In this document: positions 6,276 to 21,894 of the stretch, piece by piece
Layout: every line of letters starts with the position of its first letter
Position numbering within the stretch: position 1 is the stretch's first letter
Source of the DNA: Patescibacteria group bacterium
GTDB taxonomy: Bacteria; Patescibacteriota; Minisyncoccia; Minisyncoccales; PWPS01
Length of the DNA: 34,109 nucleotides
Direction: 5' to 3'
Assembly: GCA_034661095.1 (NCBI GenBank)
Contig: JAYEKQ010000041.1
Location: forward strand, 1-34,109
Program-made: the position numbers and the translations under genes
The notes under the pieces: model-generated
Seen by the model: the letters and a program-made list of their open reading frames with translations, nothing else
The model's database searches: none
What the model was told of the DNA's origin: nothing

Positions 6276-6983
6276 ATGAGTATATACGATAAAAAAATGA
6301 CAGAGCAGTATTATGAAACAGTTGGCGATGATTTTAACAAGAATGAAGATACTGATTTTCAGAAAAGATTTAATGAACTCTTTTACTCTCAAAAGGTAGA
6401 AAATAAAAATGTTCTTGATCTTGGTTGTGGAAACGGAAGATATGCAGAATTTTTTTGCAGGAAACAAGCAAAAAAAGTTGTTGGGACAGATTTTAATGAC
6501 TCAATGATAGATTTAGCAAATAAAAGAAAAAAAGAGAAACAACTTAAACAGATGGAAGTAATAAAAGCAGATATGAACGATATGGAGACTAAAGAAGGAG
6601 CGTTTGATTTTATATTTTCTTACTTCAGCTTGGTTCACGCAGAAGATATTGAGAAAGTTATGAGTGACTTAGGAAGAATGCTCTTTGTTGGTGGTGAGAT
6701 TTTAATTGCAACTAGCATTATTCTTCCTTCTGGTGAAGAAAAAATTAAAGAGCTACCAAGAAAGTCAGTTCCAGTAATCATAAACATTAACGATAAAGAA
6801 GTAAAAGTAGATGATTTTATCTATACTACTGAAGAGTACAAATCAGCAGTTGAGAAATCGGGACTAAAAATTGAAATAATGGAAGAATTTTCAACAGAAG
6901 AAATATCGATTGATCCGTCTTTCCCAAATAAAGATGCTTTTAATCTTAAATACTGTATAATTAAAGCAAAGAGGGGGGTATAG
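6276..6983 (+). CDS. Class I SAM-dependent methyltransferase
   Basis: It has motif I 'VLDLGCGNGRY', an acidic 'GTDFN' post-I motif and a 'FDFIFS' motif. The TAG stop lies inside the left terminus of the downstream palindromic element. Confidence 0.85.
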   Translation: MSIYDKKMTEQYYETVGDDFNKNEDTDFQKRFNELFYSQKVENKNVLDLGCGNGRYAEFFCRKQAKKVVGTDFNDSMIDLANKRKKEKQLKQMEVIKADMNDMETKEGAFDFIFSYFSLVHAEDIEKVMSDLGRMLFVGGEILIATSIILPSGEEKIKELPRKSVPVIININDKEVKVDDFIYTTEEYKSAVEKSGLKIEIMEEFSTEEISIDPSFPNKDAFNLKYCIIKAKRGV

Positions 6984-7122
6984 GATCCGAACCAAACAAT
7001 CTTTAGAAGTTGATAAATGAGTTGATTTCAAGAAACGACGACGAAAGTGATTTATTTATCAGCTTTCCACAACTAAAATTGATTTCGCTAAAGATTATTT
7101 GGTTCGAATCCCGCACCCTTAA
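6975..7122 (+). mobile_element. 148-nt short member of the nested-palindrome (TAAGGGT...ACCCTTA) element family
   Basis: The right terminus is CTAAAGATTATTTGGTTCGAATCCCGCACCCTTAA (7088-7122), with a degenerate left terminus at 6975-7006. The internal hairpin arms are GAAGTTGATAAATGAGTTGATTTC and ATTTATTTATCAGCTTTC, with the ACGACGACGAAAG box at 7035-7047. The interior is near-identical to the minus-strand 5' part of the 12150-12553 element. Confidence 0.8.
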
Positions 7123-7140: not shown

Positions 7141-7168
7141 TTGACAAAAAAAATTATGGGTATATACT
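7141..7168 (+). promoter_or_regulatory. Candidate sigma-70-type promoter for the DUF5320/DUF134 genes
   Basis: TTGACA (7141-7146), a 16-nt spacer and TATACT (7163-7168), about 40 nt upstream of ATG 7210. Confidence 0.45.
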
Positions 7169-7209: not shown

Positions 7210-7455
7210 ATGCCTAGATTTAATGGAAGTGGTCCTCTTGGATATGGTCCAATGACTGGAAGAGGAATGGGTCCTTGCCAAGGTTATGGAGTAGGAGGTG
7301 GAAGAGGTTACGGAATGGGTTATGGAATGGGATACGGAAGAAGATTTTACAGCAGAAAAGAAGAAACAGAAATGTTGAAAGAAGAAGTAGAAGAATTAAA
7401 GAATGAACTTGAAGCAGCAAAAGAAAGATTATCTGAAGTAGAGGGTCAGAAATAA
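7210..7455 (+). CDS. DUF5320-family protein with a Gly/Tyr-rich N-terminus and a C-terminal coiled coil
   Basis: 'MPRFNGSGPLGYGPMTGRGMGPC' is followed by GYG repeats and then 'EEVEELKNELEAAKERLSEVE', which is typical of DUF5320. Confidence 0.8.
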   Translation: MPRFNGSGPLGYGPMTGRGMGPCQGYGVGGGRGYGMGYGMGYGRRFYSRKEETEMLKEEVEELKNELEAAKERLSEVEGQK

Positions 7456-7515: not shown

Positions 7516-7794
7516 ATGCCAAGACCAAGACTACAGAGAAGAGTTTGTTTTTCACCATTAGTTTCTTATTTTAAACCAAGAGGAGTTCCTCTTAAAAATT
7601 TAGAGGTTATGGAGTTAAACATTGAAGAAGTTGAAGCCCTAAGATTAAAAAATATAGAACAGTTGGGGCAAGTTGAGTGTGCAAAAAAAATGAAAACATC
7701 ACAAAGCACCTTTCAAAGAATACTTTCTTCAGCTTATAAAAAAACATCAGAAGCTTTAATAAAAGGGAAAGCAATTAAAATAATTAAAAAGTAA
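7516..7794 (+). CDS. DUF134 (UPF0251) family putative DNA-binding protein
   Basis: 'MPRPRLQRRVCFSPLVSYFKPRGVP' plus an HTH-like segment 'QVECAKKMKTSQSTFQRIL' is the canonical DUF134 signature. Confidence 0.85.
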   Translation: MPRPRLQRRVCFSPLVSYFKPRGVPLKNLEVMELNIEEVEALRLKNIEQLGQVECAKKMKTSQSTFQRILSSAYKKTSEALIKGKAIKIIKK

Positions 7795-11025: not shown

Positions 11026-12051
11026 TTATTTTCCCCAAACATCAAGATCATAGAATGTCTCTCCGTGAACAGCATCAATAGCTTTTTTTAAAGGAAGATA
11101 ATCTTCAATACTGATAGCAACAAATCTGTTGTAATTAGCATCAATTCTTTCATGAATCAAAGGATCAACTTCAACTGAAGAAAGAAGAGCACTTCTTACT
11201 TCTTCTATTTGTTCTTCAGAGAGTACACTTTTATTAGCTAATATTGGAAATTCTGGAACTGGAGCATGACGCCAAATTGACCTTATTGGAGCGTCATTTT
11301 CAAGAAATTTTTCCATTATTTTTTCATTAACAAAAGCTCCTTCAACAACCCCTTTTAAAAGAGCTTCAACTGCTTTGTCATGAGATCCTATGTACTGCAT
11401 TCCTCCATCGAAAAAGGTATCAGAATCAATTCCTTCTTCAATAAACATTGCTGATGGCATTAAGTTTCCTGATGTTGAGGAAACACTTGTTCCGGTAACT
11501 TTTTTTCCTTCTAAGTCCCAAATACTTTGATATGGTGAATCTTCAAGAACAAGAAGATCTCCTTGATATGTCGGAGATCCGGTACATCTTTCTCCACAAG
11601 CAAGAATTTCCATATCATCTCCGATATTACCATACGCTTGTATTGTTGTTACAGGAGCAAGATAAACAAGTTCTATATCTCCTTCTACAAAATCTTTTGT
11701 TACTGCACTATATCCTCCAAGTTCACCCTTAGTAGGATAAAACTTCATTTTTATATTGAGATCAGTATATTCATTTAAATAGTTTTCAAGAGCACCAAAA
11801 CGATTAAGCATCTCTGTTGGATTTTGTAATGGGAGAATTCCCATATAAATTACATTTTCTTCCTCTTCTTCACCAACTGGAATAACTGGAATAACTGGTT
11901 CAACTAGTTCTTCTTTTGTAACAAAGAAAACTAAAGTTGCGATTAAAATGATAATTGCCAAAACAACAACTCCGCCAAGAATCCACTTTTTAGGGTCTTG
12001 TTCTGGCTCTTCTTCGTATTCGTAATTATTAATTGTGTTTTCTTCATCCAT
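11026..12051 (-). CDS. PhnD-like (phosphonate/phosphite ABC-type) substrate-binding protein with an N-terminal membrane anchor
   Basis: Features are 'MGILPLQNPTEMLNRFGALENYL', 'GDIELVYLAPVT', 'YQGDLLVLEDSPYQSIWDLEGKKVTGTSVSSTSGNLMP' and one TM helix. It ends 12 nt upstream of the HAMP gene. Confidence 0.75.
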   Translation of the reverse strand: MDEENTINNYEYEEEPEQDPKKWILGGVVVLAIIILIATLVFFVTKEELVEPVIPVIPVGEEEEENVIYMGILPLQNPTEMLNRFGALENYLNEYTDLNIKMKFYPTKGELGGYSAVTKDFVEGDIELVYLAPVTTIQAYGNIGDDMEILACGERCTGSPTYQGDLLVLEDSPYQSIWDLEGKKVTGTSVSSTSGNLMPSAMFIEEGIDSDTFFDGGMQYIGSHDKAVEALLKGVVEGAFVNEKIMEKFLENDAPIRSIWRHAPVPEFPILANKSVLSEEQIEEVRSALLSSVEVDPLIHERIDANYNRFVAISIEDYLPLKKAIDAVHGETFYDLDVWGK

Positions 12052-12149
12052 AATTTTTTATTTTTAAGAGGTATAAGATACAAACTAATCATTTATCAGC
12101 TTATATCCTAGTTTATAAGCCCGACCTTTATTAAAATTCCTAATTACTT

Positions 12150-12553
12150 TAAGGGTGCGAGATTCGAACCAAATAATCTTTAGCGGAATCAGTTTTGAGG
12201 AAGTTTTGAGGCGTGAGGAGTGAAGCGATATGATAATATCGTGAACGACGAGCAACGAAAAAACTTTCCAAAACTGGTTCGCCCTTCGGGAAGCTCAAAA
12301 ATATACTGTCTGCTTCGTTTCTCCTCCTCAATGTAGTTAGCACTACCTTTCGTCGTCGTGCCTCGCATACAGTATATTTTTGAGCTTCTAAACTTACTTT
12401 ATTTGTTAAAGAAGGGGTTGTGGGAAGCTGATAAATGGTTGATTTCTGCGTCACTCCTCCTCAATGTAGCTATCGCTACCTTTCGTCGTCGTTTCTTGAA
12501 ATCAACTCATTTATCAGCTTCTAAAATTACTTGGTTCGAATCTCGTACCCTTA
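12150..12553. mobile_element. 404-nt nested-palindrome element: ~34-nt terminal inverted repeats enclosing three long hairpins with conserved loop boxes
   Basis: The termini are TAAGGGTGCGAGATTCGAACCAAATAATCTTTAG and CTAAAATTACTTGGTTCGAATCTCGTACCCTTA. The hairpins are at 12190-12276, 12290-12388 and 12424-12521. The 39-nt loop box occurs at 12321-12359 and 12454-12492. ORFs 12149..12454(-) and 12358..12618(+) look non-coding. Confidence 0.85.
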
Positions 12554-12642
12554 TAATAGTTAATTTTTTTATTTTATGCAAATGTTTTTGTTTTTTAATA
12601 TTATGTGTTATATTTTAAAGTATATATTAAAGTTTATTTTTT

Positions 12643-13917
12643 GTGAACAGTTTTCCAGTAAAAAAATTAATTATATTTTTTTTAATAGCAGTTTTAATGA
12701 TTACTGTTGTTTTTCTATTTACTATTTTTTATTCTGAAAAAATAAAAGCACCAGTTCATATTTCTGCAGAACCATTATCTTATAATGAGATATTTGTTTC
12801 TTGGGAAGAAGATGAGGAAATTAGCCACTATAATGTATATAGGGCAACAGACCAGAGTAACTCATATATTAAAATAGACTATACAAAAAAAGGAGAGTAT
12901 ATAGATAAAGACTTGATGCCTAGTACAGTATATTATTATAAAGTGACAAAAGTTGTTAATTATGAAGAAAGTGATTACAGCTCAAGAGCAAGTGTTTCTA
13001 CTAAACCAGTAATGCCAACGGGATTAAAAGCAACCTCTGAAGATTTTCAAGAAACAATGCGTCTTCAAGTTAACCTTGACTGGAACTACTCTTTTGTTGC
13101 TGACAACTATAATATATATAGATCTTCTCAAGAAGAGGGTCCTTATGAAAAAATAGGAACAAGTAGTGTTGAGAGTTATGCCGATAATGACATTGAACAG
13201 GAAACGGTCTATTATTACACTATTACACAGGTTACAAATAATATAGAAAGTGTTTATAGTGATGTTGTAGAAGTTTTAACATCTGAAGAGTGGGTTTGTG
13301 GTGATATTATTAATTACGGAGGAAAAGATTATGAAACAGTAATAATCGGATCAAACTGTTGGTTTAATGAAAATTTAGATATTAGTGAAGAGGATGTTCA
13401 ATATGATTGTTCAGTTAAGAGATCTTGTTATCGTGGAGATTGTGATATCTATGGAGGGCAGTATGATTTTACATCTGCTTCCTGTAATCAAAAAAAAGAA
13501 GGTACAAGAGGTATCTGTCCCGTTGGATGGCGAATTCCTACTGATGATGACTGGGCTAATCTTGAAATTTCAATAGGGATGGATGAAGAAGAAGTAAATA
13601 CTTATGGATTTCGTGGAAGTAATGAAGCAAGCAAGATTTCTGATGGATATGAATTATGGTACCCTGGAGAACTAAGAGAGGATAAAGATTTTTCAACCTC
13701 TTCTTTTAACATTCTTCCAGGAGGATTTTGTGAATGGAAGCGTCGTAGAGCAGGAGAGGGAGTTGCTTTCTGGTCATCAACACCTTCTGAAGGAGATGCT
13801 GATTGTCGTCGTCACGGATACAGAGTAAGGATTTTAAAATATGATAATAATAAAATAATGCTAAATTGCTTTGTAAGTGACTATAAGGCTTATATTCGCT
13901 GTGCAAGGTCTTTGTAA
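12643..13917 (+). CDS. Membrane-anchored surface protein: two FN3-like domains plus a Cys-rich FISUMP (Fibrobacter succinogenes major paralogous) domain
   Basis: It has an N-terminal TM and two 'W....Y.VYR......Y.KI.......Y.D..L...T.YYYKV' FN3 repeats. The FISUMP signature is 'DYETVIIGSNCWFNENL...CY...C..YGGQY....A...CPVGWRIPTDDDW'. The start is GTG. Confidence 0.85.
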   Translation: MNSFPVKKLIIFFLIAVLMITVVFLFTIFYSEKIKAPVHISAEPLSYNEIFVSWEEDEEISHYNVYRATDQSNSYIKIDYTKKGEYIDKDLMPSTVYYYKVTKVVNYEESDYSSRASVSTKPVMPTGLKATSEDFQETMRLQVNLDWNYSFVADNYNIYRSSQEEGPYEKIGTSSVESYADNDIEQETVYYYTITQVTNNIESVYSDVVEVLTSEEWVCGDIINYGGKDYETVIIGSNCWFNENLDISEEDVQYDCSVKRSCYRGDCDIYGGQYDFTSASCNQKKEGTRGICPVGWRIPTDDDWANLEISIGMDEEEVNTYGFRGSNEASKISDGYELWYPGELREDKDFSTSSFNILPGGFCEWKRRRAGEGVAFWSSTPSEGDADCRRHGYRVRILKYDNNKIMLNCFVSDYKAYIRCARSL

Positions 13918-21573: not shown

Positions 21574-21717
21574 AGAATTTAATTATTATAGGGTACCCTT
21601 AAAATCTATACAACACAATACGATACGATACGATATGACACAACAAAGAAATAATAGCACAAAAACATTTTTTCCCCAAAAAAAGCATCGCGGACTCCGC
21701 CCCCGCACAGCTTTTGG

Positions 21718-21862: not shown

Positions 21863-21894
21863 TAAGGGTGCGGGATTTGAACCCCGTACCCTTA
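21863..21894. repeat. 32-nt minimal hairpin of the TAAGGGT...ACCCTTA family with a T-arm-like loop
   Basis: TAAGGGTGCGGGATTTGAACCCCGTACCCTTA has a 12-bp stem with one G-T pair on plus (A-C on minus). The minus strand reads GGGGTTCAAATCCCGCACCCTTA. Confidence 0.75.

Follow-up and report, generated by a model that had tools for sequence, protein, structure and literature searches.

What is the 404-nucleotide (nt) palindromic element at positions 12150-12553 of a 34,109-nt contig from a Patescibacteria group bacterium (GenBank JAYEKQ010000041.1; the whole stretch is called the window here)? The initial annotation had described inverted terminal repeats, three long hairpins, a 39-nt box common to two of the loops and complementarity between loops, and had considered a structured leader or non-coding RNA (ncRNA), a titrating RNA and a non-autonomous mobile element. 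All of these features are present, at the positions given below. We observed that the element is repeated and decaying within this one genome and that it lies in unrelated contexts across genomes, and the comparison of copies with 57-72% pairwise identity showed that its fold is maintained by selection. [quoted passage not shown] The family is a new and unusually well-structured one of a known element type, and not a new regulatory RNA gene.

Architecture of the 404-nt element

The 404-nt element, copy A, is the three-hairpin variant of the family, and its family orientation corresponds to the minus strand of the window. Its ends form a terminal inverted repeat, with a window-left arm at 12150-12183 (TAAGGGTGCGAGATTCGAACCAAATAATCTTTAG), which in family orientation forms the 3' half of the closing stem, and a window-right arm at 12522-12553 (TAAAATTACTTGGTTCGAATCTCGTACCCTTA). 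A repeat finder reported this repeat (I1) with arms at 12132-12180 and 12523-12571, matching at 80% over 49 nt around a core of ~34 nt. Three modules lie between the arms, all in the same orientation. H3 (12184-12289) has an outer stem that pairs 12190-12207 with 12259-12276, an inner hairpin, CGATAT-GATA-ATATCG, and a possible basal extension of GGCGAA with TCCGCT; its internal loops are pyrimidine-rich on the family strand (CGTTGCTCGTCGTTCA and CTTCACTCCTCACGCC). H2 (12290-12388) has a perfect outer stem of 20 base pairs (bp), found by the repeat finder as I3 (24 nt, 96%), the inner hairpin GTAGT-GCTA-ACTAC and internal loops that are purine-rich on the family strand (ACGACGACGAAAGG and GAGGAGGAGAAACG). 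H1 (12424-12521, with its base reported as I6) is a second H2-type module, found only in the variant of this genome. The H1 stem is 23 bp long; it contains one G-T pair as read on the plus strand, where the family strand has an A-C mismatch. H1 and H2 form an 87-nt direct repeat (D1 of the repeat finder), and the 39-nt box occurs exactly twice, at 12321-12359 and 12454-12492, with no occurrence expected from shuffles. The loops of H3 and H1 are complementary at 11 of 12 nt (I9, 12215-12226 with 12448-12459).

Either strand of copy A folds into a closing stem and three hairpins, each with a 5-6-bp inner hairpin. The minimum free energies are -166.1 kcal/mol for the plus strand and -158.1 kcal/mol for the minus strand, with z-scores of -12.7 and -13.0 against dinucleotide shuffles, none of which (0/100) folded equally well. 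Copy A has a GC content of 41%, compared to 32% for the window. Just upstream of it are promoter-like sites on the minus strand (12582-12553 and others), all of them consensus matches only, in AT-rich DNA. Given these sites, copy A may sit in a long 5' leader of the phnD-like operon.

Relatives in other metagenomes

We recovered relatives through the spurious open reading frames (ORFs) that run through the element. The 101-residue ORF of the window led to the protein P0001, and a comparison of P0001 with a representative library led to P0002-P0005. The metagenome contigs carrying these proteins hold five independent copies: D (L039, 3356-3626; present on 13 contigs from several JGI samples), E (L049, 453-727), F (L050-L053), G (L054) and H (L055). 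Pairwise identity between copies is 57-72%, with the exception of A and D at 87%. The host contigs range in GC content from 31% to 56% and the elements from 41% to 55%. A family profile run with nhmmer matches copy A at 12148-12399 (E = 1.6e-70) and at 12422-12553 (E = 1.5e-26).

The family unit is ~270 nt long, and the copies span 270-404 nt. The terminal inverted repeats pair into a closing stem of ~30 bp around two long hairpins, H2 and H3; in the 404-nt variant of the window genome, the H2-type module is duplicated (H1 and H2). All copies keep one order in family orientation: closing-stem arm, (TTGA/TTTA)GAAGCT-H2-AGCTTC, CCCnnnnGGGCGGG, H3, CTCCGCTMAA and the other arm. Each hairpin consists of a 17-24-bp outer stem, a large two-sided internal loop and a 5-6-bp inner hairpin with a loop of ~4 nt. 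Across the family, the internal loops of H2 are purine-rich (CGACGACGAARG and RGGAGGAGCRACRAA) and those of H3 are pyrimidine-rich (GCGTTGCTCGTC and TCRCTCCTCRYGCCTT). The stems of H1 and H2 had been taken as unrelated when copy A was the only one known; the family alignment corrects this, as both are variants of one canonical stem, GAAGCTCAAAAATGAG.TGATTTC.

Other searches added little to this set. A terminal-repeat scan of species-representative genomes gave a sole match, which adjoins a tRNA-Ser gene in a Candidatus Vogelbacteria metagenome-assembled genome, and a relaxed version of the scan on metagenome contigs gave 36 loci, nearly all of them unrelated (for example, a recurrent human-gut sequence). 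The loop-box patterns had no match among viral contigs, and the whole element had only a 35-nt chance match in phage and plasmid collections. Judged by gene content and by the relatives found, the host bacteria appear to be CPR-like and uncultivated.

Directly 3' of copy F lies a second, unrelated long palindrome (GGGACCTCTGCAAAAGTC ... GACTTTTGCAGAGGTCCC; L053, ~700-890), which is the same in L050 and L051 and may be another repeat element.

The fold is maintained across divergent copies

We assessed covariation in the six full copies, using 73 pairs in five helices and 500 shuffles. Standard pairs fill 94.1% of the cells, compared to 81.5 +/- 1.0% in the shuffles, and both sides have changed in 37 of the 73 pairs, compared to 16 +/- 2.5; for either measure, not one of the 500 shuffles reaches the observed value. 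When the partners are slid against each other by 1-3 columns, pairing falls to 29-47%. Since pairing and double changes both exceed every shuffle and pairing also exceeds the slid controls, the fold is conserved and not accidental. This bears out the earlier proposal of selection on a folded nucleic acid. A consensus prediction with RNAalifold gave 84 pairs, 39 of them with double changes.

The signal is spread over all five helices. Helix 1, the closing stem, is paired in all six full copies, with 90.8% of its cells paired and double changes in 12 of 20 pairs. Double changes occur in 11 of 22 and 3 of 4 pairs of helices 2 and 3, which make up H2, and in 7 of 21 and 4 of 6 pairs of helices 4 and 5, which make up H3 and are 96.8% and 100% paired. 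The inner hairpins are fully rewritten between copies, in H2 (GTAGC/GCTAC, AGTATA/TATACT, GGAGC/GCTCC, GTGCT/AGCAC) as well as in H3 (CGATAT/ATATCG, CGTACC/GGTACG, CGATGC/GCATCG, CGATAC/GTATCG).

Mean pairwise identity is 0.70-0.78 in the internal loops, 0.70-0.74 in the outer stems, 0.63-0.66 at the termini and 0.42-0.53 in the inner hairpins. The contrast of conserved loops with unrelated stems, which the initial annotation had described for copy A, thus holds only mildly for the family: the loops are conserved, and the outer stems nearly as much. On one strand, the loops of H2-type hairpins carry (ACG)3AAAGG and (GAG)3AAACG, and the loops of H3 carry their complements in the same 5'-to-3' order. 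Pairing between the H2 and H3 loops is possible only as 5' with 5' and 3' with 3', and 5-6 bp can form in 6/6 copies; for H1 and H3 of the window, 9 bp can form. This potential loop-loop (kissing) contact between H2 and H3 is complementary in all copies and shows no covariation, since the boxes barely vary. The conserved boxes could be loop-loop partners or, equally, repeats that bind a protein; the Shine-Dalgarno and anti-Shine-Dalgarno character first ascribed to them is putative.

The element is neither protein-coding nor a known RNA

The two ORFs in copy A had been dismissed as non-coding in the initial annotation, and the family agrees. In most copies, one frame is open over a large part of the element; the copies have no start or stop in common, and conservation at codon positions 1, 2 and 3 is 0.69, 0.72 and 0.70, without periodicity. 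We rejected a protein-coding element on these grounds, and the ORFs that run through the element, P0001-P0005 included, are artefacts.

Rfam 15 gave no match at gathering thresholds in the window, and a relaxed search of 11950-12750 gave only chance-level matches with E of 0.37 or worse. On the contigs of the other copies, Rfam found true tRNAs only, and ARAGORN found no tRNA or tmRNA gene in the window. With no Rfam or ARAGORN match, we rejected an identity as tRNA, tmRNA, group I or II intron, ribozyme, 6S RNA or Y-RNA-like RNA. Literature and database searches, which included characteristic strings of the element, returned no description of the family, in line with the initial view that copy A belongs to no named RNA family. 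Inside the element we found no convincing outward promoter or intrinsic terminator, and no promoter or terminator pattern of its own is conserved.

Decayed copies within the window

In the initial annotation, the other copies in the window had been missed. We searched the 34 kb with a 13-nt terminus probe and by self-BLAST, and this uncovered two further copies and probably a third. Copy B (6974-7121, plus strand; nhmmer E = 3.6e-10 and 2e-8) is internally deleted to ~148 nt. It retains both arms of the closing stem, the ACGACGACGAAAG box and the base of a stem of the H1 type; two internal deletions have removed H2, H3, the inner hairpin and the GAGGAG box. Copy B descends from an H1-bearing, three-hairpin master. 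Its left arm, a degenerate terminus, gives the methyltransferase ORF at 6276-6983 its last codons and its TAG stop.

Copy C (21863-21894) is a bare palindrome of 32 nt that consists only of the two outer termini, fused into a 12-bp stem (TAAGGGTGCGGG-ATTTGAAC-CCCGTACCCTTA) with TA on both flanks. A fragment at 12081-12130 on the minus strand, A' (repeats D2 and I2; blastn E = 0.016), comprises a closing-stem arm and the 5' arm of an H1-type stem. This weak match, which has the orientation of copy A and lies 20 nt away from it, is probably a fragment of a further copy.

Only one sample, SRR26901925, contains the genome of the window, and its short-read contigs end inside copies A and B (L002 at window position 12215 and L057 at 7018). 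Such breaks are typical of repeats.

Two neighbouring sequences were noted in passing. Just past copy B, a near-consensus promoter-like site at 7141-7168 (TTGACA, 16-nt spacer, TATACT; 11/12 matches) precedes a small glycine-rich ORF (7210-7455) and a DUF134 gene (7516-7794). The other is a short (ACGAT)n-like tandem, acgatacgatacgatatgac, at 21620-21640; it is intergenic, upstream of the gene for topoisomerase I, and ~220 nt separate it from copy C.

Insertion sites, flanks and orientation

Copy D separates a small upstream ORF from the body of a hicA-like gene, which it interrupts after codon 9. The upstream ORF, which is extended into the element, is hicB-like by eye only, without a Pfam match. 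Joining the flanks of copy D restores a predicted protein of 76 residues that matches the HicA_toxin profile from residue 10 with E = 7e-4, below the curated threshold. When used as a query, this reconstructed HicA gave a single match, P0006, also of 76 residues, with 91% identity over 100% coverage. The contig of P0006 (L056) aligns with both flanks of copy D, and exactly 269 nt are missing from it after codon 9. Between L039 (3062-3830) and L056 we thus observed both states of the site: hicA is interrupted in all 13 JGI contigs and intact in one NCBI assembly. The two form a filled/empty pair, which is standard evidence for mobility, and copy D is an insertion. Together with the full and decayed copies in the window and their unrelated contexts, this favours the mobile element among the options first considered.

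TA flanks both ends of copies A, C, E and H and one end of copies B, D, F and G, and no flank beyond TA is conserved among the copies. Several insertions lie directly at gene boundaries. Copy E is placed between co-directional genes (L049, 453-730): its left terminus contains the TAA stop of the upstream gene, and its right terminus is directly followed by the ATG of a Peptidase_M50 gene. A divergent gene has its start codon 2 nt from the beginning of copy F, and copy G lies 4 nt past a stop codon. Insertion at the TA of stop codons in compact genomes would fit a TA-targeting enzyme of the IS630/Tc1 type.

The element is oriented like its downstream gene in 6/6 cases (A, B, D, E, F and G; p = 0.016 if orientation is random). 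Copies A and B are oppositely oriented within 34 kb, each following the local direction of genes, which fits a transcription-linked constraint better than a replication-linked one. The downstream genes themselves are unrelated across genomes (phnD-like, DUF5320-like, hicA, Peptidase_M50 and rhodanese). The window is otherwise ordinary chromosome, with genes for CTP synthase, topoisomerase I, Pth, HisRS, RNase R, FtsA/FtsZ, NrdD and ComEC. A scan of 29 window ORFs, which left aside two ORFs of 100-105 residues and those of 50-100 residues, detected neither a transposase nor an integrase.

tRNA-like termini

The outer part of the closing stem is built of 7 + 5 bp, and its 3' side reads GGTTCGAATCYCGYACCCTTA, that is, as T-loop, T-stem strand and acceptor strand. 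In keeping with this, the outer 21 nt of the left arm of copy A resemble the reverse complement of a tRNA 3' end. In GGTTCGAATCYCGYACCCTTA, 17 contiguous nt are common to the 3' end of the tRNA-Ser on the Candidatus Vogelbacteria contig L001. At that locus (L001, 792-1080), tRNA-Ser(GGA) is followed 47 nt on by an exact 21-mer of the left terminus of copy A (TAAGGGTGCGAGATTCGAACC; 927-947), and the last ~20 nt of the tRNA itself recur as a direct copy ~110 nt past the 21-mer. The termini there bound a different two-hairpin interior of ~150 nt. The L001 locus could be another element family with the same terminus or the remnant of an integration at the tRNA. A second tRNA-adjacent case, at L016 251-300, has a terminus-like TAAGGGTGCGGGATTCGAACCAGAATCAGATTGA and a truncated partner ~200 nt downstream of a partial tRNA. 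The termini may be derived from a tRNA end, or they may be common to several element families.

The likeness to the acceptor/T-arm minihelix of tRNA and to the tRNA-like ends of tmRNA is confined to the 7 + 5 bp outer stem and its 3' side. Unlike these RNAs, the element lacks a self-contained T-arm, as the T-loop-like bases pair with the other terminus, and it lacks a CCA end; it is matched neither by ARAGORN nor by the tRNA and tmRNA models of Rfam.

Proposed mechanism and points against it

Several of the characters that define a MITE are found together here: a size under ~500 bp without coding capacity, terminal inverted repeats, at least three copies in 34 kb and an empty site. The initial annotation had set a plain MITE and a covarying structure against each other as mutually exclusive; in this family, both are true. 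We propose that the element would be mobilised in trans by an enzyme that is encoded elsewhere and recognises the termini. A candidate is a TA-duplicating transposase of the IS630/Tc1 type, as the TA flanks suggest; IS630/Tc1 elements duplicate TA on transposition (PMC2170065). Since the element lies inside transcription units and is always co-directional with the downstream gene, it is presumably co-transcribed. The fold would then most likely act in the transcript, for example as a compact module, processed by nucleases or proof against Rho, that makes insertion into tight operons tolerable, as is the case for Correia and ERIC-type repeats. The long perfect helices are putative substrates of double-strand-specific processing, by analogy with Correia elements, and the conserved loop boxes would bind a protein or make the H2-H3 loop-loop contact. 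RNA and single-stranded DNA (ssDNA) both stay candidates for the level at which the fold acts.

Several observations weigh against a mobile MITE-like family moved by such a transposase. The outer termini are among the least conserved parts (0.63-0.66, compared to 0.70-0.78 in the interior, the inner hairpins at 0.42-0.53 set apart), which would be unusual if a transposase reads them, and cut-and-paste transposition by a DDE enzyme gives internal hairpins no reason to covary. No cognate transposase and no autonomous element with the same termini was found in the scanned window ORFs or the fetched contigs. At the hicA site, the junction codon differs between the filled and the empty state (TAT and ACA), and an insertion of 267 nt with a 2-nt TA duplication is indistinguishable from one of 269 nt with none; TA is self-complementary and could simply be part of the inverted repeat. 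The two strands fold equally well (consensus -94 and -105.6 kcal/mol), and in the symmetric helices the per-pair tally of G-U against A-C mismatches is just 12 to 7, so that there is no thermodynamic sign of a single transcribed strand. Finally, the comparison rests on six independent full copies, five of which were recovered through ORFs called on one strand.

Alternative explanations

Some of these points are what one would expect of a hairpin-dependent ssDNA transposon of the REPIN, IS200/IS605-derived PATE or parvovirus T-shaped hairpin type. An HUH-type or similar enzyme would read the folded strand and bind it at the (ACG)3 and (GAG)3 boxes, and the fold would be selected as the substrate of movement. 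Y1 transposases are known to use hairpins as substrates, namely those of REP sequences and of the ends of IS200/IS605. A structure-reading enzyme explains most directly why every helix covaries, the inner hairpins included, and it suits termini that change in sequence yet keep pairing in helix 1, as well as strands that fold equally well and tolerate G-T and A-C mismatches about alike. The architecture and the flanks point the other way. IS200/IS605 and REPIN elements have no element-wide long terminal inverted repeat, whereas one of ~30 bp is present here, and they insert beside a specific tetra- or pentanucleotide without TA, a flank that the present copies do not have. No HUH, RAYT or TnpA gene was found in the window or the fetched contigs. 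Moreover, the opposite orientations of A and B within 34 kb are not predicted by a lagging-strand insertion bias, but are predicted by a transcription-linked one. On balance, we regard ssDNA transposition of this type as unlikely.

The Y-shaped fold might itself be a working device. It would then be either a mobile RNA whose tRNA-like closing helix lets it be cut out of host transcripts by tRNA-processing or double-strand nucleases, or an ssDNA substrate that offers (ACG)3/(GAG)3 repeats and their complements to an undescribed mobilising enzyme of CPR-like bacteria. We consider this distinctly unlikely. If it were true, excision by 'tRNA punctuation' would make operons, and even the interior of genes, accessible to the element, and either form of the device would be a new type of structure-dependent mobile element.

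The palindromes could also be neutral, with arms homogenised by intrastrand template switching or gene conversion and with the sampled copies being recent offspring of active masters. Copies B, C and A' do show decay after insertion, paired and unpaired columns are similarly conserved overall (0.70 and 0.64), and strand asymmetry is absent. This explanation is nonetheless very improbable, as 94% of the pairs are intact in five helices at 57-72% identity, with several helices fully rewritten, and template switching leaves unexplained why the loop boxes keep an identity of 0.70-0.78 across hosts of 31-56% GC.

A stand-alone structured ncRNA gene or a cis-regulatory leader with loops that titrate a protein or the ribosome, the form in which copy A had been proposed to serve the phnD-like or FISUMP operons, would fit the strongly conserved fold, the loop boxes and the promoter-like sites upstream of copy A, but it is extremely unlikely, given that the downstream genes differ in every genome, that one genome holds several copies, some of them decayed, that no promoter or terminator pattern of its own is conserved, and that one copy interrupts a coding sequence for which an empty site exists, which contradicts the classical form of this explanation.

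Comparison with known repeats

The closest described analogue of the MITE-like family is bcr1, a mobile repeat of the Bacillus cereus group whose two independent stem-loops are kept by compensatory changes (PMC3184786). Both are small, dispersed and apparently mobile repeats at non-conserved positions with a covarying multi-stem fold, a resemblance of function and architecture only. bcr1 is ~155 bp long, is flanked by 5-bp direct repeats and occurs in Firmicutes, whereas the present element is 270-404 nt long with TA flanks and combines tRNA-like termini with inner hairpins and with internal loops that are large and conserved.

Correia elements (CREE/NEMIS) of Neisseria and TA-flanked MITEs (RUP, IS630-derived) are likewise non-coding, have terminal inverted repeats that close a long hairpin and are placed at gene boundaries. 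The hairpin of Correia elements is reported to be bound or cut by RNase III and to change the expression of neighbours (PMC2649163). Correia elements are co-transcribed with genes, whereas for the present family co-transcription is suggested by position and orientation; they are 100-155 bp long and form one hairpin with an IHF site, without a multi-branch interior of covarying sub-hairpins.

Modularity is known from other repeats. BOX elements of Streptococcus pneumoniae have the form boxA-boxB(n)-boxC, with variable internal modules between fixed ends. The present family, with one or two H2-type modules between its ends, is like BOX by its build only, and BOX modules are much shorter. REPINs with RAYT and the PATEs of IS200/IS605 share the non-autonomous state and hairpins that are the substrate of an enzyme, so that their stems covary; they are linked to Y1 transposases and have neither an element-wide inverted repeat nor TA flanks, and on these characters the present element falls outside their class.

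Significance

Descriptions of small mobile repeats are scarce for the uncultivated, CPR-like bacteria of groundwater, with their reduced genomes. The family found here stands out by its size and its covarying, multi-branch fold, as well as by its complementary loop boxes and its ends that resemble tRNA, and it provides an unusually clean case of a selfish element with a selected multi-branch fold and loop boxes. Recognising it has value for annotation, as the family spawns spurious 'hypothetical proteins' (P0001-P0005), breaks assemblies and gives neighbouring genes their stop codons. It is also a marker of recent gene inactivation and genome plasticity, as illustrated by the interrupted hicA toxin gene. 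If the fold is the substrate of a new enzyme or of the host's RNA-processing enzymes, the family would show how very compact operons can harbour a parasite.

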